Shown: in pieces, positions 2,303-18,398 of the stretch
Position numbering within the stretch: position 1 is the stretch's first letter
Layout of the letters: each line of letters starts with the position of its first letter
DNA from: Minisyncoccota bacterium
Lineage (GTDB): Bacteria > Patescibacteriota > Minisyncoccia > Minisyncoccales > Minisyncoccaceae
Length of the DNA stretch: 32,000 nucleotides
Assembly (NCBI GenBank): GCA_041657325.1
Contig: JBBACA010000001.1
Coordinates: forward strand, 1-32,000
Direction of reading: 5' to 3'
The notes under the pieces: generated by a model
Told to the model about the DNA's origin: nothing
Database searches by the model: none
The model's input: the letters and a program-made list of their open reading frames with translations, nothing else
Translations under genes and position numbers: made by a program

Positions 2303-2326
2303 ACACCGCTTAAACGGTGTTTTTTG
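2303..2326 (+). terminator. Rho-independent terminator after the ArgRS paralog
   Basis: ACACCG (2303-2308) pairs with CGGTGT (2315-2320) across a 6-nt loop and is followed by TTTTT. Confidence 0.6.
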
Positions 2327-2453: not shown

Positions 2454-3587
2454 ATGAAGCAAAAGATGTATATCAAAGGAGTGGGAATGACCAAATTCGA
2501 TTATTCTCAGAAATATTGGTGGCAATTCGCCTACGATGCAGCTATTGAAGCCTTAAAGGATGCAAAAACAGGGATATCCGAGATAGATGCGATTGTTTTC
2601 ACCGGAATGTCGAGTGCGGCTGGCGGAGAGCATCAGACACACAAAGTGTCTTTTCTTTCAGGTTTGTTTAAAACAAACGTTCCGATTATTGAAGTTCCTT
2701 CGGTTTGCGGAGGAGGAGGCGTGGCTTTGTGGACAGCTTTGCATTTAGAAGGCTTTAAAAACATTCTTGTTTTAGCCGGAGAGAAATTGGTTGATAATAA
2801 AAGCGAGGTTGTGGTTGATTATATCTTGTCAGCAGCAGAGAGAGTGATGGAGCAGACCGAAGGAATGCTTTTTCCGGTTCAGAATGCTTTAATCTGGCAG
2901 CAATATATGAAGAAATACGGAGGCAGTATGGACGATTTGTCTTTAATTGCTTTTAAGAATCATACTAATGCCGCTTTAAATCCCAATGCTTATTTTTATA
3001 ACCGTCCGATGGATTTGGAAAAGATAAAGAATTCTCCAGTTGTTTCGTCACCTTTGCGTTTGATGGATTGTTCGCTTTCAATTAACGGTGGAGCGGCAGC
3101 GGTTGTTTCAACTGAAACGACAGACATTGAGATTATCGGTTCCGGTTTTGCAACCGACTACATCTTAACTTTTGAAAGAGATGATATTACTCATTTTAAA
3201 GCAACTAAATTAGCAGCTGAAGCGGCATATGCTCAAGCGGGAATAACTCCGAAAGATATTAATATTGCCGAAGTTCACGATGCTTTTACCTCAGTTGAAT
3301 TGATTTCCTATGAAGATTTGGGATTTGCCGAAGAAGGCAAGGGAGGGGAATTAATCAGATCGGGGAAAATTAATCTTAAAGGAGAAATGCCGATTAATAC
3401 TTCGGGCGGATTAAAAGCCAAGGGTCATCCTATCTCCGCCACTGGCTTGGCTCAGGTGTTTGAAATAGTTAATCAGTTGAGGGGTAAATGTGGAGAGCGT
3501 CAGGTTTCGAATCCGAAGATAGGATTAACGCATAATATCGGAGGAGCGGGAGGAAGCGTTACAGTTCATATATTTAAAAAAATATAA
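2454..3587 (+). CDS. Thiolase-superfamily condensing enzyme (SCP-x / archaeal-type thiolase-like)
   Basis: Nucleophile context VPSVCGGGG (Cys85). EVHDAFT at 3276-3287. NTSGGLKAKGHPISATG. C-terminal HNIGGAGGS. Length 377 aa. The next gene is a DUF35-type partner. Confidence 0.8.
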   Translation: MKQKMYIKGVGMTKFDYSQKYWWQFAYDAAIEALKDAKTGISEIDAIVFTGMSSAAGGEHQTHKVSFLSGLFKTNVPIIEVPSVCGGGGVALWTALHLEGFKNILVLAGEKLVDNKSEVVVDYILSAAERVMEQTEGMLFPVQNALIWQQYMKKYGGSMDDLSLIAFKNHTNAALNPNAYFYNRPMDLEKIKNSPVVSSPLRLMDCSLSINGGAAAVVSTETTDIEIIGSGFATDYILTFERDDITHFKATKLAAEAAYAQAGITPKDINIAEVHDAFTSVELISYEDLGFAEEGKGGELIRSGKINLKGEMPINTSGGLKAKGHPISATGLAQVFEIVNQLRGKCGERQVSNPKIGLTHNIGGAGGSVTVHIFKKI

Positions 3588-3588
3588 T

Positions 3589-4605
3589 ATGGTTTTTTAT
3601 CAATGTTCAAAATGCAAAAAGATTTGGCAGCAATCAATCGGGGTTTGTCCGGAATGTTTTTCCGAATTGGAAAAGGTAAAAACTAACAAAACTAAAGTGA
3701 TAGGAATTTCTAAGGTAAGTATTCCATCTCTTCCTCATCCTGAAGTTCCGTACTTTGCTTTGGTTTTGGAAGATGAATTAGGAAACAAGTGGGCCCATAA
3801 ATCGATTAAAGAATATGTTGTTGGAGAAGAAATCAATTTTACTACTAATGAAAATTCGGTGGCGGTCTGGAGAACAAAATACGATATTATTGATTCGATT
3901 GAAAAAGTATTCAGCTTATTAAATATATCTTTAAATGAAAATTCAAAGATTGTTATCTTGCCGACTTTAGTTTCTCCTAATCAATCTTATTTCAGAGACA
4001 ATACCTCTCCCGAGTTTCTCGAGGCGGTGATTAAATTTCTTTTTGAGAAGAAGATTAAGTTGGAGAATATTAAAATAGCGACTCAGAGTTTTGATGAAGT
4101 TTCAATTGAAGGTATGGCTCAGAAGTCAGGCTTGCTCGATGTTTGTTTGAAAAATAAAATAATGCCGGTGGATTTATCAAAATTGAATTTTGTTAAAAAG
4201 GGCAGTTTAGAAATAGCAGAAGATATTTTAAATGCTGATATGATCTTGAATTTATCAATGATGAAGATAGGGAGGGCTAGTGCTTCAGAAAACATATATA
4301 GAGTATTAAAGAAAGAAAACTTTGCTGCTTTGAAATATCTGCAATCAGAAGAGGATATTGTGAATGAATTAAAGAATAACTTAACAAACACAATTACCTT
4401 AGGAGAAGCTGATTTCGTTCAGAAACAGAATAAAACCATTGTTTATCCCGGTTTAATCTTAGGTAGCAAGAGCTTCCTTAATTTAGACAGAGTTTTTAAC
4501 GAGATAGTTGCGAGCGATCTGCCAGAGATTTTAAAAGGAGTCGAGATTCAAAATATTAAAATAACAGGTAGAGATATTAAAGAAGTAAAACTTATTAATA
4601 ATTAA
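3589..4605 (+). CDS. DUF35-like (Zn-ribbon + OB fold) protein fused to a DUF362-like domain
   Basis: The N-terminus CSKC..x..CPEC is a zinc ribbon, followed by an OB-like segment (KVIGISKVSIP..PYFALVLEDELGNKW). The C-terminal ~220 aa (VILPTLVSPNQSYFRDNTSPEFLEAVIKFL .. ADMILNLSMMK) follows the KPNLV..THPEVV..K pattern I associate with DUF362. Confidence 0.6.
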   Translation: MVFYQCSKCKKIWQQSIGVCPECFSELEKVKTNKTKVIGISKVSIPSLPHPEVPYFALVLEDELGNKWAHKSIKEYVVGEEINFTTNENSVAVWRTKYDIIDSIEKVFSLLNISLNENSKIVILPTLVSPNQSYFRDNTSPEFLEAVIKFLFEKKIKLENIKIATQSFDEVSIEGMAQKSGLLDVCLKNKIMPVDLSKLNFVKKGSLEIAEDILNADMILNLSMMKIGRASASENIYRVLKKENFAALKYLQSEEDIVNELKNNLTNTITLGEADFVQKQNKTIVYPGLILGSKSFLNLDRVFNEIVASDLPEILKGVEIQNIKITGRDIKEVKLINN

Positions 4606-4614
4606 ATTAAAAAT

Positions 4615-5340
4615 ATGTTTAAAGACAAAGTTGTTTTAATAACCGGTTCTTCTCAGGGGATAGGCAGGGTGATGGCATTAAAGTTTGCTTCACTGGGAGC
4701 TAAGGTTGCTTTAAATGATATTCCTTCGCAGGAAGAAAATTTAAAAAAGGTAGCAGCAGAAATAAACGGCAAATATTATTTAGCAGATGTTTCTAAAATG
4801 GACCAGGTTGAAAATATGATGAATAAAATTGCTGAAGAATTGGGCGGGTTAAATGTTTTAGTTAATAATGCTGGCATAACTCAGGACAGGACTTTAGCCA
4901 AAATGACGGTTGAAGAATGGCAGCGAGTAATCGACATTAATTTAACCGGAGTTTTTAATTGCACTAAAGCCGGTTTGACTTTCCTTATCCCTAATCAAGG
5001 GAATATCGTGAATGTTTCATCGATTGTCGGACAAAGAGGTAATTTCGGACAATCTAATTATTCGGCTTCAAAAGCAGGAATCATCGGCTTTACCAAATCG
5101 GTTTCCAAAGAAGTAGGAAGATTTAATGTTCGAGTTAATGCTGTCGCTCCTGGCTTTATTGAAACTAAAATGGCCGAGGCTATTCCCGAAGAATTAAAAG
5201 TCATGGTCAGAAAGCTAACTTCATTGGGCAGATTCGGCAAGCCGGAGGAAGTTGCTGCAACGGTAGCCTTCTTAGCTTCTACTGAAGCCAGCTTTATCAC
5301 CGGTGAAGTAATAAATATTGATGGCGGTTTATCCTTATAA
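4615..5340 (+). CDS. fabG: 3-oxoacyl-(ACP/CoA) reductase, classical SDR
   Basis: TGSSQGIGR cofactor motif, NNAG, and the catalytic YSASKAG. Length 241 aa. Confidence 0.85.
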   Translation: MFKDKVVLITGSSQGIGRVMALKFASLGAKVALNDIPSQEENLKKVAAEINGKYYLADVSKMDQVENMMNKIAEELGGLNVLVNNAGITQDRTLAKMTVEEWQRVIDINLTGVFNCTKAGLTFLIPNQGNIVNVSSIVGQRGNFGQSNYSASKAGIIGFTKSVSKEVGRFNVRVNAVAPGFIETKMAEAIPEELKVMVRKLTSLGRFGKPEEVAATVAFLASTEASFITGEVINIDGGLSL

Positions 5341-5341
5341 T

Positions 5342-6847
5342 ATGCTTTATTCTAAAGAACAAATTAAACAAATAATACCGTATGCCGATCCCTTCTTGTG
5401 GGTGGATGAAATTGAATCAATTGAAAACGATACGATTATCGGTTTTAAGCAAACAAATTCTACGGATGAATACTTCAAAGGACACTTTGTTGATTTTCCC
5501 ATTATGCCTGGAGTTTTGGTGGTTGAGGGAATTGCTCAGACCGGAACTTTATTATTAAGAGAGAAAATAGGGAAAGATCATCAGAAAAAGCATCTTTTAG
5601 CTTATCAGGTGAGAAGCGCCTTGTTCTATGACCCTATCTGGCCAGGAGATAAAATCAAATACAAAGTTAAACTTCTCGGAATTTATAATAATAAGATTGC
5701 TAACTTTTTAGGGGAAGCATTTGTTGATGACACCAGAAAATGTGAAGTGAGATTCAGTGTGGCGATTATGGATAAGACAGAGATGGAAGAAAAGAAATTA
5801 TCAGCCAATAAAGAAAATAAAGATCATTCAATAAAGATGTTTAAATTGCCTAATTTGAAAATAGGAAACATCTTTTCTAAATTACCCATTATCCAGGGCG
5901 GAATGGCGGTTCGGGTTTCTTTGCACAAATTAGCTGGTAATGTTGCGAAAGAAGGAGGAGTAGGAATTATTGCTGTGTCGGGAATGAAAGATGTAGAAGA
6001 AGTTAAAAGTGAAATCAGAAAGGCGAGAGAGATTTCTGGGCACAATGGAGCTATTGGAATAAATATTATGGGAGTGGTGGGAAGATTTAAAGAATTAGTT
6101 AAAGCTGCCGTAGAAGAGAAGATAGATTTGATTATCCAGGGAGCCGGTTTTAGAAAAGACATTTTTGATATTGCTAAAGAAGGTAATGTACCGGTTTTTG
6201 CCATTGCTTCTTCAGCTAAAGTGGCAAAGAGAGCAGAAGATTCCGGAGCAACCGCCGTTGTTATTGAAGGAAGTGATGCCGGAGGTCATTTGGGATTTCC
6301 CGAAGGACATCCTTTCAGACATGCGATAGATATTGTGAGAGAAGTGGTTAAAGAAGTTAAGATTCCAGTGATTGCAGCCGGAGGAGTTTTTAACGGAAAA
6401 GATATTGTGGAAATGCTTCGGGCAGGGGCTTCGGGCGTACAAATGGCAACTCGCTTTGTGGCAACCGAAGAATGCGATGCCGATTTGAAATTCAAAGAAG
6501 CATATTTGAAAGCTAAAGAAGAAGATATTGTGATTATTCATTCTCCGGTCGGATTGCCTGGTCGGGCGATTAAAACTTCTTTTGTTAATAAATTATTAAA
6601 TAACAATGCTCCCAAAGTTAATATTATTGAATGCGAAGGATGTATCGGTCCGGTTTGCGATAAGAGTTATTGTATTTTAAAAGCCTTGGAGAATGCCAGA
6701 AAAGGAGATTTGGAAAACGGATTAGTTTTTGCCGGGGCTAATGCCTGGAGGATTAACAAGATTGTGAAAGTTAAAGATTTATTAAAAGAACTGGTAGATG
6801 AAGCAGAACAAATATTAATCAAAGATCCTTTAATCAGAAATATATAA
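5342..6847 (+). CDS. FabZ-like hot-dog dehydratase fused to FabK/NMO-type enoyl reductase
   Basis: Start placed at ATG 5342, 2 nt after the fabG stop. The N-terminal region (PFLWVDEI .. GHFVDFPIMPGVLVVEGIAQ) is FabZ-like. PIIQGGMAVRVS .. DAGGHLG .. GASGVQMATRF marks an FMN TIM-barrel of the FabK/nitronate-monooxygenase type. A CX2CX4CX4C motif lies at 6632-6673. Confidence 0.75.
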   Translation: MLYSKEQIKQIIPYADPFLWVDEIESIENDTIIGFKQTNSTDEYFKGHFVDFPIMPGVLVVEGIAQTGTLLLREKIGKDHQKKHLLAYQVRSALFYDPIWPGDKIKYKVKLLGIYNNKIANFLGEAFVDDTRKCEVRFSVAIMDKTEMEEKKLSANKENKDHSIKMFKLPNLKIGNIFSKLPIIQGGMAVRVSLHKLAGNVAKEGGVGIIAVSGMKDVEEVKSEIRKAREISGHNGAIGINIMGVVGRFKELVKAAVEEKIDLIIQGAGFRKDIFDIAKEGNVPVFAIASSAKVAKRAEDSGATAVVIEGSDAGGHLGFPEGHPFRHAIDIVREVVKEVKIPVIAAGGVFNGKDIVEMLRAGASGVQMATRFVATEECDADLKFKEAYLKAKEEDIVIIHSPVGLPGRAIKTSFVNKLLNNNAPKVNIIECEGCIGPVCDKSYCILKALENARKGDLENGLVFAGANAWRINKIVKVKDLLKELVDEAEQILIKDPLIRNI

Positions 6848-6848
6848 T

Positions 6849-7790
6849 ATGTTTGAAAATAATAAATTAACAAAGCTTTTACATATTCAGTATCCGATTA
6901 TCCAGGGCGGAATGGCTGGAGTTTCAGAACATGTTTTAACGGCTGCTGTTTCTAATGCCGGAGGATTGGGAATAATCGGTTCCGGCTTTGCTTCACCTTC
7001 ATGGTTGGAAGAAGAAATTAAGAAGACCAAAGAAATGACTGACAAGCCGTTCGGAGTAAATTTATTAATGCAAAATCCTAATATTGCTGATTTAGTTAAA
7101 GTTATCATTAAAGAAAGGGTTCCGGTTGTTTTTACCGGGGGAGGAAATCCTTTGCCTATCCTTCCTTATCTAAAACAATCGGGGATTAAAGTCATTGCGG
7201 TTGTTCCTTCGGTCAGATTGGCTTCCAAGATGGAGCAGAATGGAATTGATGGAGTGGTGGTTGAAGGAATGGAATCAGGCGGACATATCGGAGAAAATTC
7301 AACTTTCTGTTTAGTTCCTCAGGCTAGAAAGGTGGTGAAGAATATTCCTTTAATTGCGGCCGGTGGAATATTTGACGGAGCAACTTTTGCTGCGGCGATA
7401 GTCTTAGGAGCTGACGGAGTTCAAATCGGAACCAGATTCATGGCTTCGACCGAATGTCAGATTCATGAAAACTACAAGCAGGCTATTATTAATGCGACCG
7501 ATGAAGATATTACCGTTGTGGCTAGGTTCACCGGTCATCCGATTCGGGCCATTAAAAACAAGCTTTCGGAAACAATCAAGAAGATGGAAGAAAAGAGTCC
7601 TTTCCCGGAAGAATTGAATTCAGAAAGATTTGCTGGGAATAAAGGTTCGGCCAATATCGATTTAACTCCTTTATTATGCGGTATTTGTGCCGGAGGAATA
7701 GACGAAATTAAAAGTTGTAAAGAGATTGTCGATGAGATTATTGATGACGCTAAGAAAGCGATAAAGGAAAGCGAACATTTCTATGAATAA
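6849..7790 (+). CDS. fabK: Second FabK/NMO-type enoyl reductase
   Basis: YPIIQGGMAGVS, ESGGHIG and GADGVQIGTRF. Length 313 aa. The start lies 2 nt after the previous stop. Confidence 0.7.
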   Translation: MFENNKLTKLLHIQYPIIQGGMAGVSEHVLTAAVSNAGGLGIIGSGFASPSWLEEEIKKTKEMTDKPFGVNLLMQNPNIADLVKVIIKERVPVVFTGGGNPLPILPYLKQSGIKVIAVVPSVRLASKMEQNGIDGVVVEGMESGGHIGENSTFCLVPQARKVVKNIPLIAAGGIFDGATFAAAIVLGADGVQIGTRFMASTECQIHENYKQAIINATDEDITVVARFTGHPIRAIKNKLSETIKKMEEKSPFPEELNSERFAGNKGSANIDLTPLLCGICAGGIDEIKSCKEIVDEIIDDAKKAIKESEHFYE

Positions 7791-8442
7791 AATACTTTCA
7801 ACAATATTAAGAATTACCTTGGCTCCTTTAATCGGTTTATTATTTATTAAAGAAGTGAAAGGGAAGGATAATTTTCCAGATCGAAATGTGATTTTAGCTT
7901 CCAATCATCAGAGTTATTTGGATATTCTTCTTTGCGGATATATTTGTGTACCTAGAAAGTATACTCATATCGGACAGGTAGACAGAGAGAATAAAGGATG
8001 GAGCGGTTTCCGTGATTTTATTTATTCCTTAGGCGAAGTTATTCCGGTAAACAGAAAAGATGAAAATTCAAAAAAGTTAGCTTTTGAGAGAGCTATAGAA
8101 TTTTTAAATAAAAGATATTCATTGGTTATCTATCCTGAAGGAACCAGAACCAGGACCGGAGAAGTTGGAAAAGGAAAATGGGGAGTGGCAAAGTTTTTTC
8201 TTGAAACAGGAGTGCCGATTTTGCCTTTGGGAATCAGAGGAGCATTTGAATTGTTTCCTCCGGGAGAAAAACCGAAAGTTAAAAAGAACATCAGATTGAA
8301 TATTGGTCAGCCACTTTTCTTTAAAGAAGAATTAGAATTGGTTAAAGGAATGAGTCGTGATTCAAAAGAGTATGAAGATGTCTGTATTAAGATTACAGAA
8401 AAAGTAATGGAAGAAATTAAAAAGCTAACCTATGAAGATTAA
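7783..8442 (+). CDS. plsC: 1-acyl-sn-glycerol-3-phosphate acyltransferase family
   Basis: NHQSYLD (HX4D motif) and YPEGTRTR (motif III). Hydrophobic N-terminus. Overlaps the upstream gene by 8 nt. Confidence 0.75.
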   Translation: MNKILSTILRITLAPLIGLLFIKEVKGKDNFPDRNVILASNHQSYLDILLCGYICVPRKYTHIGQVDRENKGWSGFRDFIYSLGEVIPVNRKDENSKKLAFERAIEFLNKRYSLVIYPEGTRTRTGEVGKGKWGVAKFFLETGVPILPLGIRGAFELFPPGEKPKVKKNIRLNIGQPLFFKEELELVKGMSRDSKEYEDVCIKITEKVMEEIKKLTYED

Positions 8443-9979
8443 GAAAATCAAAAAGATTTTAATTGCCAATAGGGGAGAAATCGCCTTGCGGATAATAAGG
8501 ACATGCAAAGAGATGGGAATTAAAACCGTCGTTCTTTGTCCTAATCCGGGAGACGAAAAGAACTTTCTTGAAACCACCTTGGCTGATGAATATTATTTCT
8601 TAGAAGAAGATGGAGTTAAAGGATATCTTAATATGAAAAAGATTGTGGAAATAGCTAAGATTGCTAAGGCTGATGCGATTCATCCCGGTTACGGATTTTT
8701 AGCTGAGAATTGGAGATTTGCCCAGCTTTGTGAAAGAAATAAAATCAAATTCATCGGACCGAATCATAATCTTTTAAGTAAATTTGAAGACAAGATTGAA
8801 GCCAAGAAGATTGCCAAGAAGATTGGTATACCAACTTTGCCGGCCAGTGATAAACCGATTATGAATAAAAAACAGTTGGCGATGTGGGCTAATAAAATCA
8901 AGCCGCCTTTTATTTTAAAAGCTCAGAAAGGCGGAGGGGGAATGGGAATCAGAATTATTGAGAATAAGATAAACTTAGGAGAGTTGTTTGCTATTTCTTT
9001 AGCGGTGCAGCGACAAATGGCGACTGCTTTTGCCGATGCCGATTTCTTTTTAGAGAAATATCTTCCCGAGGTGAGACATATTGAATTTCAAATATTAGGC
9101 GACGGAAAGAATGCCGTTCATTTGGGAGAAAGAGACTGTACGATTCAAAGAAGATTTCAAAAGCTTTTAGAAGAAGCACCTTCTTCTTTTCTTGATTCTA
9201 AAACCAGAGAAGAAATGGGTGTTTGGGCGGTGAAGATAATAAAGGAATTAAAATACAAGGGAGCAGCCACCGTTGAGTTTTTGGTTGATAACGACAAGAA
9301 TTATTATTTCATGGAGGTGAATCCGAGAATTCAGGTTGAACATCCGGTTACCGAAGCCATTACCGGAATTGATATTGTTGAACAGCAGATAAGAATTGCT
9401 CAGGGAGAATTATTATCTTTTACTCAAAAAGATGTTCATTTCAATGGTTATGCGATTGAAGCCAGAATTAATGCCGAAGATCCACAGAGAGATTTCCAAC
9501 CTACTCCAGGAACAATTGAAAAGTATTTTCCTTCTGGAGGACAGGGAGTATTCTTACATAGCTTCTTGCATCACGGACAAGAAATATATCCTTATTTCGA
9601 TTCTTTGTTAGCTAAAGTTGTGGCAACTGGAAAAACAAGAAAGGAAGCGATTAATAAATTAAAGAGAGCTTTAGACGAGATTATTATTCAGGGAGTTGAT
9701 ACGACTATTCCTTTTTTCAAATTATTATTGGAGGACAAGGAATTCATTAAGGGAAACTTTAACACCAATTTTATCGAAAAGAACGGAATTATAAAGGAGT
9801 TGATGCTGAAGCCTTATCTTAAAACAAAGATGAAGGGGAAATTAGTTGAAGAAATGAATGAAGAGGAATTGGCAGATATTGTTTTCCATATTTATGAAAA
9901 GATTAAGAAGGTGAGCGGTTTTTCTCATACGTATGTTTCCAAATGGCTTAATTCGGAAAGATTAAAAATGATCGATTAA
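8432..9979 (+). CDS. accC: Biotin carboxylase
   Basis: ILIANRGEIALRIIRTCKEMGI, the GGGGMGIR glycine loop, and EVNPRIQVEHPVTE. It carries about 60 extra C-terminal residues. Confidence 0.9.
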   Translation: MKIKKIKKILIANRGEIALRIIRTCKEMGIKTVVLCPNPGDEKNFLETTLADEYYFLEEDGVKGYLNMKKIVEIAKIAKADAIHPGYGFLAENWRFAQLCERNKIKFIGPNHNLLSKFEDKIEAKKIAKKIGIPTLPASDKPIMNKKQLAMWANKIKPPFILKAQKGGGGMGIRIIENKINLGELFAISLAVQRQMATAFADADFFLEKYLPEVRHIEFQILGDGKNAVHLGERDCTIQRRFQKLLEEAPSSFLDSKTREEMGVWAVKIIKELKYKGAATVEFLVDNDKNYYFMEVNPRIQVEHPVTEAITGIDIVEQQIRIAQGELLSFTQKDVHFNGYAIEARINAEDPQRDFQPTPGTIEKYFPSGGQGVFLHSFLHHGQEIYPYFDSLLAKVVATGKTRKEAINKLKRALDEIIIQGVDTTIPFFKLLLEDKEFIKGNFNTNFIEKNGIIKELMLKPYLKTKMKGKLVEEMNEEELADIVFHIYEKIKKVSGFSHTYVSKWLNSERLKMID

Positions 9980-9983
9980 AGAT

Positions 9984-10349
9984 ATGGATTTTAAGATAAA
10001 GATTAAAAATAAAGAATATCAGGTCGAACTGAAAGAAAATGGTGGAGCCGTCAAGATTAAGGTTGGAGGAAAAGAGTTCGTTTTTGGCTCAAATAAAGGC
10101 TTAATTGAGGCTCAGTCTGCAACTAAGAAAGATTTAAGCAAAGAGGTTGTTTCTTCTTTATCAGGGGTAATAATTAATATTTTTATTAAGGAAGGAGAAA
10201 AGGTTAAATCGGGCAAGAAGTTTTTAACCTTATCAGCGATGAAGATGGAAAATGAAATTGTGGCGGAAAATGATTGTAAGATTAAAAAGATATTAGTTAA
10301 AGAGAATCAACAGGTTAAAGAGGGAGAAGTCTTAATTATTTTAGAATGA
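9984..10349 (+). CDS. accB: Biotin carboxyl carrier protein / biotinyl domain
   Basis: SAMKMENEI biotinylation motif within a 121-aa protein. Confidence 0.8.
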   Translation: MDFKIKIKNKEYQVELKENGGAVKIKVGGKEFVFGSNKGLIEAQSATKKDLSKEVVSSLSGVIINIFIKEGEKVKSGKKFLTLSAMKMENEIVAENDCKIKKILVKENQQVKEGEVLIILE

Positions 10350-10350
10350 T

Positions 10351-10878
10351 ATGCAAATAGAAAAATTCAAAATAATTTCTTCAACCAATAAAAAAGCTAA
10401 AGAGATGAGCAATCTTGGTGTTGCTCCCTGGACGGTTATCGTTTCCGAAGTTCAGGAAAACGGATACGGGAGAAAAGGGGAGGCTTGGTATTCTCCTTTG
10501 GGAGGATTGTATTTTTCTATTATTCTTCCTCGTGGAAATATTGAAGACTTGCAGACGATAACTATTTTAGCTGCTTTCATTGTCGCTAAAGTAATTAAGG
10601 AATCTTTTAATATTGAACCCTTAATTAAATTACCGAACGATGTTTTATTAAACGGGAAAAAGATTTGTGGAATATTAACTGAAAATGTTATCGGTTCGGA
10701 GGTTAAACTTTCGGTGATTGGGATAGGAATTAATACTAATATTGAAAGTTTCCCAAATGAATTAAAAGATATTGCCACTTCTTTAAAGATGGAATTGGGG
10801 CATGAAGTTGATAATAATGTCTTATTAGAAAAAATAATTACTGAATTGAAAAATCAATTCAAAACAATTAGCGAATAA
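10351..10878 (+). CDS. birA: Biotin-protein ligase, catalytic domain only
   Basis: GRKGEAWYSPLGGLYFSIIL and KLPNDVLLNGKKICGILTE. At 175 aa it has no HTH and no C-terminal SH3-like domain. Confidence 0.75.
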   Translation: MQIEKFKIISSTNKKAKEMSNLGVAPWTVIVSEVQENGYGRKGEAWYSPLGGLYFSIILPRGNIEDLQTITILAAFIVAKVIKESFNIEPLIKLPNDVLLNGKKICGILTENVIGSEVKLSVIGIGINTNIESFPNELKDIATSLKMELGHEVDNNVLLEKIITELKNQFKTISE

Positions 10879-10883
10879 ATATT

Positions 10884-12422
10884 ATGAAATTTAAAAAGGA
10901 AATAGAAAAATTGAATAATACTTTATCAGACATTGATAATTCTAAGCTGATAGATAAACAGCATCAGAAAGGAAAACTGGGAGCCCGAGAAAGAATTAAT
11001 CTGTTATTAGACGAAAACAGTTTTACCGAATTGGATGCTTTTATCGAAAGTCGTTTTTCCGGTCTGGATTTAGACAAGAAGAAGTTCTTAGGAGATTCGG
11101 TGATTACTGGATTCGGTAAGATTAATAACAGAAATGTCTATTTATACAGTCAGGACTTTTCTAAGATGGGAGGGTCATTAGGAGAGATGCATGGCAAAAA
11201 GATTGCCAAAATCATTGAATTGGGGCGCAAAACCGGCTGTCCGGTGATTGGAATCATTGATTCAGGGGGAGCGAGAATCCAGGAAGGAGTTTCTAGTTTA
11301 GACGGTTATGCCGGTATTTTTAGAAGTATGGTTAAAGCTTCGGGAGTTGTTCCTCAGATTAGCATCATGGTTGGTCCTTCGGCCGGAGGAGCTTGTTATG
11401 CTCCTGGACTGTCTGATTTTATTTTCATGACTGAGGGAATTTCCCAAATGTATATCACTGGTCCAGAAGTGATTAAAAGAGTGACTGGAGAAGACGTAAC
11501 TTTTGAAGGGTTGGGAGGAGCGAATGTTCATTCTACTAAAAGCGGTTGTGCTCATTTTGTTTATATCAATGAAAAAGATTGTTTTAATGGTGTTAAGAAT
11601 CTTTTTTCTTATCTTCCTCAAAACAATACCGAAGATTCAATGATGAGACAGGAAACAGTTGAAGAAGTTAAAAATGATAAACTGTTAGAAATAATTCCTG
11701 AAGAACAGGAAAAGGGATACGACATTAAAGAGGTCATTAAAGAGGTTTTTGATACAGATACTTTTTTTGAAGTTCATGCCAAGTTTGCTGTTAATGCGGT
11801 TGTCGGGTTTGCCCGATTAAACGGAAACGTGGTGGGAATAGTTGCTAACCAGCCCAAATCAATGGCCGGAGTATTGGATATTGATTCTTCGGATAAGATT
11901 GCTCGATTTGTTCGCTTCTGTGATGCTTTCAATATTCCTTTGATTAATTTAGTTGATACTCCGGGCTATCTTCCCGGAACCAATCAGGAATATCAGGGAA
12001 TTATTCGTCACGGAGCTAAAATATTATATGCCTATGCCGAAGCAACGGTTCCAAAGATCAGTTTGATATTAAGAAAAGCTTTCGGCGGAGCATATATTGC
12101 TTTAGCTTCCCGTGATTTAGGATACGATTGTGTTATCGCCTGGCCCTGTGCGGAAATAGCGGTGATGGGAGCTGAGCAGGCAGTCAAGATTATCTTTAAA
12201 AAACAATTAGCCGATTCTAAGAATCCGGATAAATTAGAGAAGGAGAAGATAAAGGAAATCAAAGATTGTTTCCTTGATCCTTTTTGTGCTGCTAAACTTG
12301 GTCAGGTGGATATGATTATTGATCCAAGAGAAACAAGAAGCGTTTTAATTAAATCGCTAGAATCCCTATCAACCAAGCGAGAGGGATTGATAACAAGAAA
12401 ACATGGCAGCATGCCTTTGTAA
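10884..12422 (+). CDS. Acyl-CoA carboxylase carboxyltransferase subunit (fused beta/alpha, PccB/AccD5-type)
   Basis: GKLGARERINLLLDENSF, GGARIQEG and GPSAGGACYAP, with duplicated crotonase-like halves. Length 512 aa. Confidence 0.9.
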   Translation: MKFKKEIEKLNNTLSDIDNSKLIDKQHQKGKLGARERINLLLDENSFTELDAFIESRFSGLDLDKKKFLGDSVITGFGKINNRNVYLYSQDFSKMGGSLGEMHGKKIAKIIELGRKTGCPVIGIIDSGGARIQEGVSSLDGYAGIFRSMVKASGVVPQISIMVGPSAGGACYAPGLSDFIFMTEGISQMYITGPEVIKRVTGEDVTFEGLGGANVHSTKSGCAHFVYINEKDCFNGVKNLFSYLPQNNTEDSMMRQETVEEVKNDKLLEIIPEEQEKGYDIKEVIKEVFDTDTFFEVHAKFAVNAVVGFARLNGNVVGIVANQPKSMAGVLDIDSSDKIARFVRFCDAFNIPLINLVDTPGYLPGTNQEYQGIIRHGAKILYAYAEATVPKISLILRKAFGGAYIALASRDLGYDCVIAWPCAEIAVMGAEQAVKIIFKKQLADSKNPDKLEKEKIKEIKDCFLDPFCAAKLGQVDMIIDPRETRSVLIKSLESLSTKREGLITRKHGSMPL

Positions 12423-12435
12423 TTTTAAAAAACAA

Positions 12436-12630
12436 ATGAATTTATACAAAATTGATAAAGTGAAGTGTCTTGGCTGTGCCGGTTGTACAATTTTCTGTCC
12501 TAAAGGGATAGAAATAATGAGTAATGGGAGAGCGAGAATAATAGATTGCAAAGAATTAGAGAAATGCGGGGGAGAGAAGCTCTGTCCTCGCAAAGCAATT
12601 ATTAAAAAGAATAAGAAAGACACTGTTTAA
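12436..12630 (+). CDS. Small 4Fe-4S ferredoxin-like protein
   Basis: CLGCAGCTIFCP (CX2CX2CX3CP) plus a second incomplete Cys cluster, CX6CX5CP. Start moved to ATG 12436 to avoid overlapping the carboxyltransferase gene. Confidence 0.6.
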   Translation: MNLYKIDKVKCLGCAGCTIFCPKGIEIMSNGRARIIDCKELEKCGGEKLCPRKAIIKKNKKDTV

Positions 12631-12687: not shown

Positions 12688-12716
12688 TTGACAAATATAT
12701 TTACAAAGATTATAAT
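12688..12716 (+). promoter_or_regulatory. Consensus sigma70 promoter with operator-like half-sites for the TA pair
   Basis: Perfect TTGACA (12688-12693), an exact 17-nt spacer, and perfect TATAAT (12711-12716), 10 nt upstream of ATG 12726. TGTAA-N7-TTACA lies at 12665-12681 and another TTACA lies inside the spacer (12701-12705). Confidence 0.6.
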
Positions 12717-12725: not shown

Positions 12726-13505
12726 ATGATTGGTCAATTTATTCTAAATCAGCGTAAAAAACGCAATATAACCCAAGAATCTTTGGCTTCTTTGCTTAAT
12801 ATTTCTCGTCCGACTTATGTACAGATAGAGCAAGGAGAAAGAGATTTGACCGTAACCGAAGCGCAGAAGCTTTCGGAGGTTTTTGATATTTCATTAGAAG
12901 ATTTATTAAAAGGTAAAGAATTTCAAGAACCAAAATTTAAGATTGAAGAGAAAAAATCTAAAGTTGAAAAAGAAGAAGTTCGTATTAGCGTTCCTCAGGA
13001 AAAAATAGAAAAGTTTCGTCAAGTTTTACTATATATTCTTAAAAAAGTTGGTGGGAAGCCTAATGTCGGAATGACTGCGATATATAAATTTTTGTATTTT
13101 ATAGATTTTGACTACTACGAAAAATATGAGGAACAGTTAATGGGATTGAATTATATCAAAAATCATTATGGACCGACCCCTTTATTATTTGATAATCTTA
13201 TTAAAAAAATGATTAAGGATGGGGAGGTAGAAACAGTGAAGAGTAAATTTTATCAATATCCTCAAACTAAATATTTAGTTAATCCGGAAGTCGAGCCAGA
13301 TTTAACTGTATTGGACGGGAAAGAGAAAGAGCATATAGATTTTGAACTTCAAAGATTGTCTGATATGACAGCAATACAACTTTCAGATCTTTCCCACAAA
13401 GATGTGCCGTGGATAAGTGCGGAAAACGGCAAATCTATTAATTACGAATCGGTTTTTTACCGAACTAGTGATACTTCTTTGCGCGACTATGGAGAATCAG
13501 ATTAA
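12726..13505 (+). CDS. XRE-family HTH fused to DUF4065/Panacea (SocA-like) antitoxin domain
   Basis: The N-terminus (RKKRNITQESLASLLNISRPTYVQIEQGERDLT) is an HTH_XRE. The C-terminus (GMTAIYKFLYFIDFDYYEKYEEQLMGLNYIKNHYGPTP) matches the DUF4065 core pattern. Confidence 0.75.
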   Translation: MIGQFILNQRKKRNITQESLASLLNISRPTYVQIEQGERDLTVTEAQKLSEVFDISLEDLLKGKEFQEPKFKIEEKKSKVEKEEVRISVPQEKIEKFRQVLLYILKKVGGKPNVGMTAIYKFLYFIDFDYYEKYEEQLMGLNYIKNHYGPTPLLFDNLIKKMIKDGEVETVKSKFYQYPQTKYLVNPEVEPDLTVLDGKEKEHIDFELQRLSDMTAIQLSDLSHKDVPWISAENGKSINYESVFYRTSDTSLRDYGESD

Positions 13506-13867: not shown

Positions 13868-13896
13868 TTTTCAATTGGCTCTTTTTTTGATAGAAT
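13868..13896 (+). promoter_or_regulatory. Possible extended -10 promoter for argS
   Basis: TTTTCA (13868-13873), a 17-nt spacer, then TG-A-TAGAAT (13888-13896). It would give a near-leaderless transcript for ATG 13905/13908. Confidence 0.3.
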
Positions 13897-13907
13897 ATGG
13901 ACATATG

Positions 13908-15470
13908 ATGAATGTGAGAGAAGAGATAAAGAATAGTGTCTCTAAATCACTTAAATCTCTGGGATACGGAGATGAGTTTGTGGTTAAAGTTTTAAAGCCT
14001 AAAGAGGCTTCTTTTGGTGATTATTCAGTTAGTGTGGCTATGGAAATAGCTAAAAAAGAAGGGCATAATCCTGCGGAAATTGCTGAAAAGATAAAAGAGA
14101 AAATTGATAATAAATACTTTGAAAAGATTGAAGTGGTTAATCCCGGCTTCATTAATTTCTTTATTTCTAAGGATTTAGTTTTAAATGAGATTCAGGAGGT
14201 TCTGAAAAAAGGAGACAAGTTCGGAGATTTGAATATTTCTAAGTCTAAGACTCAGGTTGAATTCATTTCTGCCAATCCAACTGGTCCTTTAACGGTCGGA
14301 AATGGCCGGGGAGGCCCCTTTGGAGATGTTTTAGCTAATGTTCTTGCTAAGACTGGGGCTAAGGTTGAAAAAGCCTATTATGTTAATGATTACGGTCAGC
14401 AGATACTGTCTTTGGGCCATTCGGTTTTAAAAGATGCTGACGCTAAATATGCAGGAGAATACATCGATGAATTGGCTTTATTAATTAAAGAAACAGATCC
14501 TTATAAAGTTGGAGTTAAAGCTTCTTCAATTGTTTTAGAAGGAATTAAAAAAACAGTTGCTAATTTAAATATTAAGTTTGATGAATGGTTTTCGGAAACT
14601 TCTTTGCATGATAAGGGGGAAGTTGAGAAAGTAATTGATTTTTTAAAGAAGAAAGGTTTTACCTATGAATCAGAAGGAGCTTTGTGGTTTAAATCAACTA
14701 TGTTCGGAGATGAGAGAGATAGGGTAATAGTTAAGACTGATCATAATAATACTTATTTAGCTGGAGATATTGCTTATCACCGCAACAAGTTTGAGAAAAA
14801 GAAATTTGATAAAGTGATTAATATTTGGGGAGCGGATCACTTTGGTGATGTTCCCGGGCTAATGGCCGGAGTTGAAGCCATCGGACACAAAGGACAATTA
14901 GAAATTGTCTTATTACAGTTTGTCACAGTCATGAAAGACGGCAAGCCGGTAAAGATGTCAAAGAGAATGGGCACCGCTATTTTAATGGATGATTTACTAT
15001 CTGAATTGCCTCCTGATGTAATAAAGTTTTTCTTTTTACAAAAATCAAACAATACTCATTTGAATTTTGATATGGATTTGGCCCGTGAGCAGTCAGAAAA
15101 GAATCCTGTTTACTATGTTCAATATGCTCATGCCCGTATTACAGGTGTTTTAAGGAATGCCGGCACTTCTTCAATCAAGAAGATTAATAATGTTTCTTTG
15201 CTTACTCATCCGAGTGAAATTGAATTAATGAAAGAGATATTGAAATTACCAGAAATAATAGAAGATACTTCTGTTGATTATCAAGTTCATCGTATTCCCC
15301 AGTATGCACTTGATTTGGCGACCTCTTTCCATAAGTTTTATAACGATTGTCATATTTTAGTCGAAGATGAAAAATTAAAAGAAGCAAGATTGGGCTTAGT
15401 CTGTGCTACCAAGATTGCTTTAAAGAATACATTAGAATTAATGGGAATATCTGCTCCCGAGCAGATGTAA
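13908..15470 (+). CDS. argS: Arginyl-tRNA synthetase
   Basis: SANPTGPL, WGADH, KMSKR, TYLAGDIAYH and YVQYAHAR, with the canonical C-terminus GISAPEQM. The HIGH position reads TVGN (14292-14303) rather than HxGH. Confidence 0.9.
   Translation: MNVREEIKNSVSKSLKSLGYGDEFVVKVLKPKEASFGDYSVSVAMEIAKKEGHNPAEIAEKIKEKIDNKYFEKIEVVNPGFINFFISKDLVLNEIQEVLKKGDKFGDLNISKSKTQVEFISANPTGPLTVGNGRGGPFGDVLANVLAKTGAKVEKAYYVNDYGQQILSLGHSVLKDADAKYAGEYIDELALLIKETDPYKVGVKASSIVLEGIKKTVANLNIKFDEWFSETSLHDKGEVEKVIDFLKKKGFTYESEGALWFKSTMFGDERDRVIVKTDHNNTYLAGDIAYHRNKFEKKKFDKVINIWGADHFGDVPGLMAGVEAIGHKGQLEIVLLQFVTVMKDGKPVKMSKRMGTAILMDDLLSELPPDVIKFFFLQKSNNTHLNFDMDLAREQSEKNPVYYVQYAHARITGVLRNAGTSSIKKINNVSLLTHPSEIELMKEILKLPEIIEDTSVDYQVHRIPQYALDLATSFHKFYNDCHILVEDEKLKEARLGLVCATKIALKNTLELMGISAPEQM
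15423..15470. repeat. 48-bp direct repeat, copy 1 (native argS 3' end)
   Basis: Identical at 47 of 48 positions to 17177-17224. Contains the 8-bp inverted repeat ATCTGCTC-CC-GAGCAGAT (15449-15466). Confidence 0.9.
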
Positions 15471-15474: not shown

Positions 15475-16161
15475 ATGGAACATTTTATTCAAATTAATTA
15501 TGGGGATTTATTTGTAGAAATGTTGAAGGTATTTGCTCAGCTTTGGTATGTATGGGCAATTATTATAGGAATGTTCTTTTTGAGATTATTTATTGATATT
15601 TGGTTACCGAAAATTGTCAAAAGATGGAATAATAATAGAAAGTTTAAAAGCGGAGAAAAATATAGGTCAGATGATGATTTAATAAGATGGCTTAGAGGGA
15701 TGACCCCAAATGAATTTGAAGAGTATATTGCCAATCTATTTAATCGTCTTGGATATAAAGCAGAAAAAGTCGGTGGTTCTTACGATGGAGGAATAGATGT
15801 GATTATTAAAAAAGATGGAGAAACGGGATATATTCAATGCAAGAAGTTTATAATAAAAGAAGTTCCAGTCGGAGCAGTTAGGGATTTTTACGGAGCTTTT
15901 ATTGGAAAACTCGCTACCAGTAAAGGCTATTTTATTTCTACGAATAAGTTTACCTTAGAAGCTATTAAGTTTGCAGAAGATAAGCCAATAGAATTAGTAG
16001 ATCATTTTAAATTAATTAAATATATTAATTTGGCAAATAAAAATAATATTTGTCCTCAGTGTGGAAATTTATTGATTGAAAAAAATGGAAAGTTTGGAAA
16101 GTTCTATGGGTGTTCTAATTATCCTAAATGCGATTTTACTAAAAATATTAAAAATGAATAA
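15475..16161 (+). CDS. Mrr-type restriction endonuclease domain protein with N-terminal TM helix and C-terminal topoisomerase-type C4 zinc finger
   Basis: Hydrophobic WYVWAIIIGMFFLRLFIDIWL. FEEYIANLFNRLGY .. YDGGIDVII .. YIQCKKF is a PD-(D/E)xK core of the Mrr_cat type. The finger is CPQCG..x..GCSNYPKC. Confidence 0.75.
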   Translation: MEHFIQINYGDLFVEMLKVFAQLWYVWAIIIGMFFLRLFIDIWLPKIVKRWNNNRKFKSGEKYRSDDDLIRWLRGMTPNEFEEYIANLFNRLGYKAEKVGGSYDGGIDVIIKKDGETGYIQCKKFIIKEVPVGAVRDFYGAFIGKLATSKGYFISTNKFTLEAIKFAEDKPIELVDHFKLIKYINLANKNNICPQCGNLLIEKNGKFGKFYGCSNYPKCDFTKNIKNE

Positions 16162-17140
16162 AATGCAATCTAAATTTAATTTACCCTTAATCAACGCTCA
16201 TACTCATGCTGCCATGGTCGGTTTCCGTGGTATGGCTGAAGATTTGCCATTGGATAAATGGCTTAATGATGTTATCTGGCCGATGGAAGCTAAATTTAAA
16301 ATGGAAAATCCATCTTTTGTTTACGAACAAACTATGGTGGCGATTGATGAAATGAGAGAAAACGGAATAGCCGCTTTCATGGATATGTATTTCTATGAGA
16401 ATGAAGTCGGCCGAGCTTGTGAAGAAATGGGAATGCCAGTTGTTTTAGGAGAAGGATTAATCGACTCAAAAGGACAAGAGATATTTGATAAGGACTTGAA
16501 GACAACGGAGATGCTGTTAGAGAAATACAAGAATCATTCTTTTGTTAAAGTATCGGTTGCTCCGCATTCTCCCTATGCCGTTAATAAAGATAATTTAATC
16601 AAAGCTAAAGAATTAGCGAGAAAGTATAATGCTATTTATCAGCTTCATGTAGCGGAAACAAAAAAAGAAGTTGATGATTCTTTGAATAAGCATGGTTTGA
16701 CTCCGGTGCAATATTTAGAGGAGATTGGAGTGTTGGATGAAAAAACAGTTTTAATCCATTGTGTTTGGTTAACTGATAATGATATTTCAATTATTGCTAA
16801 GCATAATTGTAAAGTGGTTCATTGTCCGCTTAGCAATTTAAAGCTCGGTTCGGGAGTTGCTCCGATTGCCAAATTATTGAAAGCGGGAGTGATTGTTGCT
16901 TTGGGGACAGACGGAGCAGCTAGTTCTAATCGATTAGATATTTGGGAGACAGGGAAGTTTGCCGCTTTATTACAAAAAGGAATAAACTATGACCCGACAC
17001 TACTTCCGGTCAAAGAGGTTATCAAAATGGCAACGGTTAACGGGATGAAGACACTGGGATTTGATAATATTATGGGTAAAACCATTAAGGATATAGAGGA
17101 GGAGATAGAAAAGGGGGATTTTGTTAATTTATATAATTAA
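16154..17140 (+). CDS. Amidohydrolase-superfamily deaminase (MtaD / SAH-MTA deaminase-like), trimmed ends
   Basis: INAHTHAAM (HxH metal site), VAPHSPY, HVAET, HCV and GTDGAASSN. At 328 aa it lacks the usual N- and C-terminal beta-sandwich segments. Confidence 0.75.
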   Translation: MNKMQSKFNLPLINAHTHAAMVGFRGMAEDLPLDKWLNDVIWPMEAKFKMENPSFVYEQTMVAIDEMRENGIAAFMDMYFYENEVGRACEEMGMPVVLGEGLIDSKGQEIFDKDLKTTEMLLEKYKNHSFVKVSVAPHSPYAVNKDNLIKAKELARKYNAIYQLHVAETKKEVDDSLNKHGLTPVQYLEEIGVLDEKTVLIHCVWLTDNDISIIAKHNCKVVHCPLSNLKLGSGVAPIAKLLKAGVIVALGTDGAASSNRLDIWETGKFAALLQKGINYDPTLLPVKEVIKMATVNGMKTLGFDNIMGKTIKDIEEEIEKGDFVNLYN

Positions 17141-17176
17141 CAAAATTTTTAAAGAAATAAGATTATATAAAGTTAC

Positions 17177-17224
17177 AAGAATACATTAGAATTAATGGGA
17201 ATATCTGCTCCTGAGCAGATGTAA
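17177..17224. repeat. 48-bp direct repeat, copy 2 (orphan duplicate of the argS 3' end including its stop codon)
   Basis: The only difference from 15423-15470 is C to T at 17212, inside the 2-nt spacer of the inverted repeat. No argS coding sequence lies upstream of it. Confidence 0.9.
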
Positions 17225-17231
17225 TGAGGTT

Positions 17232-17269
17232 GGTTCGAATCCTAGTACCTCTGCCAACTTGAGCGTAGT
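17232..17269 (+). repeat. tRNA 3'-end-like fragment (GGTTCGAAT .. CTGCCA) plus 19-bp direct repeat, copy A
   Basis: A T-loop-like GGTTCGAATCC is followed 16 nt after the loop by a G-CCA end. CTGCCAACTTGAGCGTAGT (17251-17269) is identical to 18261-18279. No matching 5' acceptor or D arm is present. Confidence 0.6.
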
Positions 17270-17318
17270 CCAAGAAAATTTTCTTTTCTTTTAATCATAA
17301 CAATTTGTTATAAATAAT

Positions 17319-18122: not shown

Positions 18123-18170
18123 TAATTACACTATAGTGTAATTTTATATCTAATTTTGTGTCACTTTTTA

Positions 18171-18265
18171 GGTAGCTCAAGTCGCGTCGATATGGTAAGA
18201 TAAAAGTACTTAAATTATCCTTATGGGGTATATATCCCTGGGGTTCGATCTCGACTTGGCCTGCC
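18171..18265. repeat. Imperfect 14-bp inverted repeat enclosing 67 bp
   Basis: GGTAGCTCAAGTCG (18171-18184) pairs with CGACTTGGCCTGCC (18252-18265): 11 Watson-Crick pairs, 2 G-U pairs if RNA, and 1 mismatch. The interior holds two small hairpins and the GGTTCGATC motif. Confidence 0.4.
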
Positions 18266-18279
18266 AACTTGAGCGTAGT
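18242..18279 (+). repeat. tRNA 3'-end-like fragment (GGTTCGATC .. CTGCCA) plus 19-bp direct repeat, copy B
   Basis: Same geometry as copy A: GGTTCGA, then 12 nt, then CTGCCA. The 19-mer at 18261-18279 is identical to copy A, 1010 bp downstream of it. Confidence 0.6.
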
Positions 18280-18398
18280 TAGAGCGCACGAGTCGCGTAG
18301 TTTTAAAAAAAACAATGATTACACCAAGAAACAATTTATTAACTATTATAATTGATGGAAGCACCTTATTATTTTGAGGTGTTTTATTTTGTAAAAAT

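Follow-up and report, generated by a model that had tools for sequence, protein, structure and literature searches.

Organization of the operon

The stretch of DNA analyzed here (hereafter, the window) is 32,000 nucleotides (nt) long and comes from a bacterium of the Minisyncoccales/Paceibacteria, within the candidate phyla radiation (CPR). At positions 2454–12630 it carries a putative fatty-acid synthesis operon, in which the place of the usual condensing enzyme appears to be taken by a thiolase and a DUF35-DUF362 fusion protein. Paceibacteria are ultra-small, and CPR bacteria are usually assumed to obtain their lipids from others. The initial annotation of the window, made from the letters and a list of open reading frames (ORFs), had considered that such genes would be notable in a reduced-genome bacterium, and a CPR bacterium is indeed the host.

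The window has about 34% GC, is coding nearly throughout and is dominated by the + strand. All eleven ORFs of the operon lie on this strand, and according to the ORF calls neighboring genes overlap by no more than 11 nt or are separated by no more than 13 nt. In the upstream half, the junctions are +1 nt between the thiolase gene (hereafter KT) and DUF35-DUF362, then +9 to FabG, +1 to the gene of a FabZ-FabX-like fusion, +1 to FabK, and −8 to PlsC. In the downstream half they are −11 nt between PlsC and the biotin carboxylase AccC, then +4 to the biotin carboxyl carrier protein (BCCP), +1 to BirA, +5 to the carboxyltransferase, and +13 to a ferredoxin-like gene. These values use the ATG starts at 5342 for FabZ-FabX-like and 12436 for the ferredoxin-like gene.

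Both edges of the operon could be recognized. Upstream, 3′ of an arginyl-tRNA synthetase (ArgRS) gene, a hairpin (ACACCG/CGGTGT) followed by a T-run at 2303–2325 (+ strand) is a likely terminator; it was read from the sequence, and the consensus scan did not return it. Downstream, a perfect sigma-70 consensus (TTGACA-17-TATAAT) at 12688–12716 (+ strand) lies 5′ of the next gene, which encodes a helix–turn–helix (HTH) and SocA-like protein. Because of the tight junctions, the likely upstream terminator and the separate promoter of the next gene, the eleven genes look like one transcription unit. The operon is flanked on both sides by ArgRS paralogs. Neither a tRNA gene nor any Rfam match was found in the window.

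The tight + strand packing of eleven genes described in the initial annotation agrees exactly with the ORF coordinates and junctions. Its list of encoded domains also held, except that the domain fused to FabZ is FabX-like and not a FabK, and that the ferredoxin match is weak. The GT28-like glycolipid synthase that it had placed 1.7 kb upstream had to be abandoned: no GT28 match was obtained upstream of the operon by Pfam (E up to 5), NCBIfam, or PDB sequence searches, the ORF at 6–698 matches only DUF6938, and the one at 682–2280 is an ArgRS.

The thiolase and the DUF35-DUF362 protein

The first gene (2454–3587) encodes a 377-aa thiolase of the archaeal/SCP2 type (Pfam Thiolase_C_1, 3e-48; NCBIfam PRK06064, 332 bits). 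The catalytic residues are present: the nucleophile is Cys85, and the two histidines are His275, in an H-D-A-F motif, and His325, in G-H-P. The best PDB matches were a Thermococcales thiolase (7yvy, 8e-68) and the thiolase chain 6esq_A (3e-53), and other solved relatives include SCP2-thiolases, BbsB, and PhlC. KT belongs to the thiolase clade that works with DUF35 partners.

The H-D-A-F motif was found in all 55 KT orthologs compared, where it replaces the H-D-C-F loop that carries the acid/base cysteine of SCP2-type thiolases and leaves a Cys-His-His site like that of the 3-ketoacyl-ACP synthases (KAS; ACP, acyl carrier protein). The motif was considered as a mark of decarboxylating chemistry and was rejected as diagnostic, since it also occurs in 47 of the 150 nearest cluster representatives and in all 99 Thermococcales orthologs of 7yvy with a readable motif. 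Because the Thermococcales thiolases share it, H-D-A-F does not rule out thiolase chemistry.

The second gene encodes a fusion of two domains. Pfam gave no DUF35 call on this protein; its residues 1–100 (3589–3888) contain the arrangement C-x2-C-x10-C-x2-C (C6, C9, C20, and C23), which is the canonical spacing of the DUF35 zinc ribbon (PMC12329534), followed by an OB fold. A family profile matches 6esq_E, the DUF35 chain of the thiolase/3-hydroxy-3-methylglutaryl-CoA (HMG-CoA) synthase complex of M. thermolithotrophicus, and a Foldseek search with the AlphaFold model (AF2, pLDDT 93) matched this region to BbsA, MucB, the DUF35 domain of ChsH2, 6esq_E, and 3irb. The DUF35 domain named in the initial annotation is thus borne out by the cysteines, by the profile, and by the predicted model, and it is presumed to be a thiolase-binding scaffold.

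The remainder of the protein (3940–4605) is a DUF362 domain (Pfam, 4e-07) with a LarA-like fold in the same model. Its Foldseek matches were the malate/lactate racemases 7s91, 6d6z, and 9eia (E values of 2e-6 to 3e-4), and the likeness to LarA-type nickel-pincer racemases is at the level of the fold, with 9–14% identity.

Reductases, dehydratase, acyltransferase, and carboxylase

The third gene (4615–5340) encodes a 3-ketoacyl reductase of the FabG type, a short-chain dehydrogenase/reductase (SDR; adh_short_C2, 1e-69; TIGR01830, 282 bits), and its score of 258 bits for NF009466 exceeds the cut-off of that family. It is followed by a FabZ hotdog dehydratase domain (5342–5800; PF07977, 3e-18; NCBIfam FabZ, 99 bits) that keeps both catalytic residues, the histidine in GHF and the glutamate in VEGIAQ.

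The flavin mononucleotide (FMN) domain fused to this FabZ, of the NMO family (5828–6847), was assigned as FabX-like from its PDB matches and cysteine motif. The match to Helicobacter pylori FabX (7e1q; 2.8e-54, 188 bits) is better than that to FabK (7l00; 1.4e-40, 143 bits), the catalytic histidine is present in GGHLG, and a C-x2-C-x4-C-x4-C motif is encoded at nt 6632–6673. The FabX of H. pylori is a [4Fe-4S] flavoenzyme, a dehydrogenase/isomerase for the synthesis of unsaturated fatty acids (PMC8626469), with an NMO TIM barrel and a C-terminal subdomain that takes the place of the NAD(P)H site. The four cysteines align to its [4Fe-4S] region and, as in FabX, stand in the C-terminal subdomain, although their spacing differs (C-x3-C-x3-C-x11-C in FabX). 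Also unlike FabX, the domain is fused to FabZ, and its predicted substrate is an acyl-CoA instead of an acyl-ACP. Among 40 orthologs, 38 have the histidine and the four cysteines, and 37 have the fusion to FabZ.

A canonical FMN-dependent enoyl reductase, FabK (6849–7790; TIGR03151, 351 bits; C. difficile FabK 7l00, 2e-86), follows, and then a lysophosphatidate acyltransferase of the PlsC type (7783–8442; PF01553, 3.5e-25), with an N-terminal hydrophobic anchor and intact HX4D (NHQSYLD) and PEGTR (PEGTRT) motifs.

The next four genes encode a complete acyl-CoA carboxylase (ACC) and its biotin ligase. These are AccC (8432–9979; NF006367, 565 bits), BCCP (9984–10349; PF00364, 2e-14), a short BirA with the catalytic domain only (10351–10878; TIGR00121, 151 bits, above the cut-off), and a single-chain carboxyltransferase of the 12S/PccB type (10884–12422; PF01039, 3e-175; TIGR01117 subfamily, 706 bits). 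The last gene (12436–12630) encodes a 64-aa ferredoxin-like protein with the motif CxxCxxCxxxCP, whose matches to the Fer4 families (E = 2.6e-4) are below the cut-offs. By tblastn this gene was detected in eight loci, in close relatives only, and it is therefore a peripheral member of the operon.

Conservation in related bacteria

For the DUF35-DUF362 fusion, 377 or more full-length homologs exist, and nearly all those with a named source belong to Candidatus Paceibacterota or Parcubacteria. When each GTDB species was represented by one genome, the scan retrieved 61 loci, all from metagenome-assembled genomes (MAGs) of the Patescibacteria type. The closest relative (locus L007; loci are numbered with an L) is a Minisyncoccales MAG whose operon proteins are 91–98% identical to those of the window, and in L009, on a chromosome of 655 kb, they are 84–94% identical. 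One locus (L044) belongs to a cultured species, Minisyncoccus archaeiphilus, in which the same gene set is found in the same order (MNSC_05910–05970).

Gene content was surveyed by tblastn in 42 nonduplicate loci with at least 9 kb of downstream sequence. FabG was present in all 42, FabZ, FabK, and PlsC in 40 each, AccC and BCCP in 39 each, BirA in 33, and the carboxyltransferase in 32; part of the shortfall is due to flanks that end early. The complete ordered set, namely, KT, DUF35-DUF362, FabG, FabZ (with or without the FabX-like domain), FabK, PlsC, AccC, BCCP, BirA, and carboxyltransferase, was found in 29 of the 42. In all 58 loci that have both, KT and DUF35-DUF362 are adjacent, and FabG is directly downstream of DUF35-DUF362 in 42 of 42. 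The ACC genes accompany the Fab genes; FabZ and FabK are missing from two loci, and no ACC genes were seen beside these. The same order is kept in species-level genomes whose operon proteins are 37–97% identical, so that the arrangement is ancient in the lineage and not a product of chance.

Acyl carrier protein and the lipids of CPR bacteria

The absence of ACP, the malonyl transferase FabD, the ACP synthase AcpS, and any KAS from the window, as stated in the initial annotation, was corroborated by Pfam and NCBIfam searches, in which the remaining ORFs showed unrelated domains, and by tblastn probes. The probes were the ACPs of E. coli and B. subtilis and the FabH, FabD, FabF, and AcpS of E. 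coli, which are adequate for the detection of homology. At a cut-off of E ≤ 1e-3, none of them gave a match in 1.06 Mb of DNA, made up of the window and 68 related loci.

These results can be set beside the literature. In 675 CPR genomes, Probst et al. (2020; PMC7242380) found no enzymes producing or requiring ACP. Some Parcubacteria (Nealsonbacteria) were nevertheless reported to have a near-complete set of type II fatty-acid synthase homologs that lacks AcpS or FabD, together with PlsY and PlsC but no PlsX, and an ACP-independent route was raised as a possibility. For Minisyncoccus, AccC, FabK, FabG, a FabA-like protein, and an acyl-CoA synthetase were listed, their role was called unclear, and the pathway was reported as incomplete (PMC12281837). 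Neither study names a condensing enzyme or DUF35; the pathway was judged to be incomplete, or the lipids to be scavenged. In a review of 2026, the phylum's phospholipid synthesis is still regarded as incomplete. Our literature searches returned no paper linking CPR bacteria to thiolase/DUF35 condensation. The assignment of a condensing enzyme in CPR bacteria thus appears to be new, while the gene set itself had been seen before and left unexplained.

The annotation rows of Minisyncoccus, up to about MNSC_06xxx, contain no entry for PP-binding, ketoacyl, malonyl, fabD, fabH, fabF, acpP, acpS, or plsX. The lipids of methanogens are isoprenoid ethers, and an archaeal host would therefore be a poor source of fatty acids for this bacterium. 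Minisyncoccus is a parasite of a methanogen (PMC12281837).

Proposed pathway

We consider it fairly probable that the operon encodes an ACP-independent fatty-acid synthase of the Paceibacteria that works on CoA thioesters and is coupled to the acylation of phospholipids. By analogy with the synthase of Sulfolobus acidocaldarius, discussed below, KT and DUF35-DUF362 are proposed as the condensing module: KT, held by the DUF35 domain, would perform a Claisen condensation on acyl-CoA and so replace both KAS and ACP. FabG would then reduce the 3-ketoacyl-CoA, the FabZ domain would dehydrate its product, and FabK would reduce the enoyl-CoA. The FabX-like Fe-S flavoprotein domain may introduce or isomerize a double bond, of the cis type, giving unsaturated fatty acids anaerobically, and PlsC would transfer the acyl-CoA product onto lysophosphatidate. 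For the biotin carboxylase, BCCP, BirA, and carboxyltransferase, a role in producing malonyl-CoA is predicted, and in the simplest reading this would be the extender that makes the condensation irreversible. That malonyl-CoA feeds the pathway is argued from the fact that the carboxylase, BirA, and a nearby BioY travel with the Fab genes and are absent beside the two loci without FabZ and FabK. Its user would have to be the thiolase, the only condensing enzyme present.

A bolder form of the proposal is put forward tentatively, and we regard it as rather doubtful. The thiolase and DUF35-DUF362 would constitute a new condensing machine, in which an enzyme of the thiolase fold with a Cys-His-His site uses malonyl-CoA decarboxylatively, while the LarA-like DUF362 domain takes over from ACP in holding or presenting the CoA thioesters. 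With FabZ-FabX-like, FabK, and PlsC added, CPR bacteria would have a complete and self-sufficient ACP-free route to saturated and unsaturated fatty acids for their membranes.

Several observations weigh against a CoA-based synthase. The families of FabG, FabZ, and FabK normally use acyl-ACP. KT does not have any feature that marks decarboxylating chemistry, and the pathway of S. acidocaldarius uses no malonyl-CoA (Schmerling et al. 2024). In addition, three genomes (L016/L068, L017, and L021) have mevalonate genes after the trio of KT, DUF35-DUF362, and FabG, and because of this adjacency the thiolase may serve, in addition or instead, to provide acetoacetyl-CoA for isoprenoid synthesis.

Neighboring genes in related loci

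Neighboring ORFs of the related loci were clustered, and 30 recurrent families were annotated with Pfam or NCBIfam. The recurrent neighbors form a lipid neighborhood. The most frequent (28 of 68 loci) is a DUF359 protein of the archaeal-type GTP-dependent dephospho-CoA kinase family, whose best NCBIfam match is the archaeal enzyme; it is usually found between KT and DUF35-DUF362, and its presence suggests a link to the supply of CoA. The DUF359 gene lies on the opposite strand (e.g., L006 9498–10007 and L033 9406–9918, both on the − strand).

A FakA-FakB fusion and DegV proteins occur in 22 loci, beside PlsY and the operon (e.g., L067 3670–5448 and L006 2866–7428). Such a fatty-acid kinase could supply the acyl-phosphate of PlsY without PlsX, the gap noted by Probst et al. 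(2020). Other recurrent families were UppS (18 loci), a CarS/CdsA-like cytidylyltransferase (16 loci), BioY (14 loci), PlsY (13 loci), and a CDP-alcohol phosphatidyltransferase (11 loci). A cyclopropane-fatty-acid (CFA) synthase gene was found in eight loci, between FabG and FabZ (e.g., L037 5719–6936), and only in loci with the FabX-like domain, which is consistent with the production of cis-unsaturated acyl chains. In six loci (L024 6066–8685, L032, L041, L044 of Minisyncoccus, L063, and L011), NuoF-like and [FeFe]-hydrogenase-like genes of the HndC/HndD type adjoin the operon, and these are a possible source of reducing power.

The mevalonate genes of the three genomes mentioned above encode HMG-CoA synthase, HMG-CoA reductase, and a GHMP kinase, with a polyprenyl synthase in addition. 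L016/L068 is Parcubacteria DG_74_1 (gene stretch L068 5332–18826), and in L021 the mevalonate genes are placed between FabG and FabZ. L068 further contains, downstream, genes for a UbiA prenyltransferase and a geranylgeranyl-reductase-like protein and, upstream of KT, a CarS-like gene whose best NCBIfam match is CDP-archaeol synthase. Taken together, these predicted functions resemble a set of archaeal ether-lipid genes in a CPR bacterium.

Alternative explanations

An explanation that we find unlikely, and that survives best among the alternatives, is that the thiolase and DUF35-DUF362 only make acetoacetyl-CoA, in the style of the archaeal mevalonate pathway, and that the Fab enzymes act on scavenged fatty acids, which they would elongate, desaturate, or remodel, and build none de novo. 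The HMG-CoA synthase, HMG-CoA reductase, and GHMP kinase genes directly after the trio fit this explanation, as do the polyprenyl synthase or UppS genes often found nearby and the fact that the closest solved homologs of KT are archaeal thiolases of the mevalonate type. Free fatty acids seem to be handled by these cells, given the FakA/FakB genes near the operon, and Minisyncoccus also has a long-chain acyl-CoA synthetase (PMC12281837). On the other hand, HMG-CoA synthase was found neither in the window nor in 39 of 42 informative loci, and FabG follows DUF35-DUF362 in all 42. Elongation of scavenged chains would still require a condensing enzyme, for which KT is the sole candidate, and ACC is present with the Fab genes in 39 of 42 loci and was not seen beside the two loci lacking FabZ and FabK. 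The CoA-based synthase linked to membrane lipid assembly that the initial annotation had proposed is supported in part: the CPR host, the conservation of the operon, PlsC in 40 of 42 loci, the phospholipid genes nearby, the lack of any match to ACP machinery in the 1.06 Mb, and the survey of 675 CPR genomes all favor it, and the mevalonate context in three genomes allows an isoprenoid role for the thiolase.

That the operon belongs to a conventional ACP-dependent type II synthase, with ACP, AcpS, FabD, and KAS encoded elsewhere and the thiolase and DUF35 engaged in an unrelated job, seems improbable to us. It would account for the canonical use of acyl-ACP by FabG, FabZ, FabK, and PlsC, and the inspected DNA amounts to some 32 kb from this genome and, for each relative, no more than about 21 kb. 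None of the ACP, FabD, KAS, and AcpS probes matched in the 1.06 Mb around the 68 loci, however, and the 675 CPR genomes of Probst et al. (2020; PMC7242380) and the complete genome of Minisyncoccus, described with an incomplete pathway (PMC12281837), point in the same direction. An unrelated job is also difficult to reconcile with the position of KT and DUF35-DUF362, which open this translationally coupled operon as its first and second genes.

Very improbable is a redox sink, i.e., a fermentative reversal of beta-oxidation to butyrate or hexanoate, or else storage of a polyhydroxyalkanoate (PHA) kind, in place of membrane lipids. A thiolase, a ketoreductase, a dehydratase, and an enoyl reductase do suffice to convert acetyl-CoA into butyryl-CoA, and the operon is flanked by the ferredoxin gene in the window or by the NuoF-like and hydrogenase-like genes in six loci, including that of Minisyncoccus. 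But an ATP-consuming carboxylase with its BirA makes no sense in a redox sink, nor would PlsC be expected in the operon at 40 of 42 loci, or the FabX-like domain and CFA synthase that these loci contain. The enzymes are of the biosynthetic FabG, FabZ, and FabK types, and not Hbd, Crt, and Bcd-Etf; no acyl-CoA dehydrogenase/ETF, crotonase, or (S)-3-hydroxyacyl-CoA dehydrogenase was found in the operon or among the annotated recurrent neighbors, and none of the 30 annotated families is a butyrate kinase, phosphotransbutyrylase, CoA-transferase, or PHA synthase. Degradative and fermentative readings were rejected on this gene content. Finally, an acyltransferase system of the PhlABC/MucABC kind, acylating a small molecule of specialized metabolism, is barely credible, since PhlC and MucABC components, present among the structural and sequence matches of KT and DUF35, match far more weakly than the archaeal thiolases do, a KAS III-like partner of the PhlA or MucA kind is missing, and both the operon and its neighbors are lipid-biosynthetic in content.

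Other genes of the window

The two ArgRS paralogs that bracket the operon (682–2280 and 13875–15470) are 56% identical to each other, and the same bracketing was observed in L004, L005, L007, L008, L009, and L010. Both are without the canonical histidines of the HIGH motif (PLTPSQGR and PLTVGNGR, respectively), and KMSK is present only in the second. Between the operon and the second ArgRS lies the gene for the HTH and SocA/Panacea antitoxin-like protein (12726–13505), which has the perfect sigma-70 promoter as its own and is found in only some close relatives. A defense-like stretch follows at 15475–29046, with an Mrr-type nuclease carrying a Top1 zinc ribbon, an S49 peptidase, a PLD-SNF2 helicase and then an Eco57I/MmeI-type methyltransferase (18399–25024), and a UvrD-like helicase with C-terminal ankyrin repeats (26716–29046). 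The last ORF (30003–32000) encodes an isoleucyl-tRNA synthetase and continues past the right end of the window.

Significance and comparison with known systems

The CPR, or Patescibacteria, account for a large share of bacterial diversity and are generally described as unable to make lipids, and the origin of their membranes is a standing question. The operon described here offers a candidate for the condensing enzyme missing from the "incomplete" pathways of Nealsonbacteria and Minisyncoccus, and these bacteria may therefore make their own membrane fatty acids on CoA. Were the malonyl-dependent thiolase machine and the ACP-free route both true, they would overturn the view of CPR bacteria as obligate lipid scavengers. 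Because one species with the operon is in culture, growing on an archaeon, the hypothesis is directly testable by labeling and lipidomics.

Three known systems can be compared with the operon. The first is the thiolase/HMG-CoA synthase/DUF35 complex of M. thermolithotrophicus (6esq/6et9), with which it shares a homologous thiolase (3e-53) and a DUF35 domain that matches in structure and in its C4 ribbon. Unlike that complex, the operon contains no HMG-CoA synthase, which was seen in only three related loci, and its DUF35 protein has the extra DUF362 domain.

The second is bacterial type II synthesis, to which the operon is similar in its homologous FabG, FabZ, and enoyl reductase with their catalytic motifs, in its PlsC, and in a supply of malonyl-CoA based on biotin carboxylase. 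It differs in that ACP, AcpS, FabD, and KAS were found neither in the window nor in the 1.06 Mb of loci, in that a thiolase occupies the condensing slot, and in that the carboxyltransferase is of the single-chain 12S/PccB type and not AccA/AccD. Because ACP, FabD, and KAS are lacking, the operon is not a canonical type II synthase.

The third is the ACP-independent synthase of S. acidocaldarius, in which the thiolase Saci_1121 and the DUF35 protein Saci_1120, with a FabG-like reductase (ACR), a MaoC dehydratase, and an enoyl-CoA reductase of the MDR family (medium-chain dehydrogenases/reductases), make fatty acyl-CoA, as demonstrated in vitro and also in vivo, where genes were deleted (Schmerling et al. 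2024; bioRxiv 10.1101/2024.07.05.601840). The initial annotation had described such an archaeal route as proposed and not proven, a view outdated by this reconstitution. Here too, an SCP2/archaeal-type thiolase stands beside a zinc-ribbon/OB DUF35 gene, with an SDR ketoreductase and no ACP, and the operon thereby links the CPR pathway to the archaeal synthase. Nevertheless, FabZ and an FMN-dependent FabK are found instead of MaoC and the MDR enzyme, the DUF35 domain is fused to the LarA-like DUF362, the host is a bacterium, and the same operon contains a complete acyl-CoA carboxylase with BirA, the FabX-like domain, and PlsC. The S. acidocaldarius pathway was shown not to need malonyl-CoA; the archaeal type is marked by a stable complex of KT, DUF35, reductase, and dehydratase and by condensation with acetyl-CoA alone, and the carboxylase argues for a difference in this respect. 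The operon would work in the manner of the archaeal KT/DUF35 synthases but, given the other families of dehydratase and enoyl reductase, the extra domain of the DUF35 protein, and the carboxylase, is not a strict member of them. It is also chimeric, with thiolase, DUF35, carboxylase, and BirA, as well as the neighboring dephospho-CoA kinase and CarS-like genes, being archaeal-like and the Fab genes bacterial, a make-up of relevance to the "lipid divide" and to the flow of genes between CPR bacteria and archaeal hosts.

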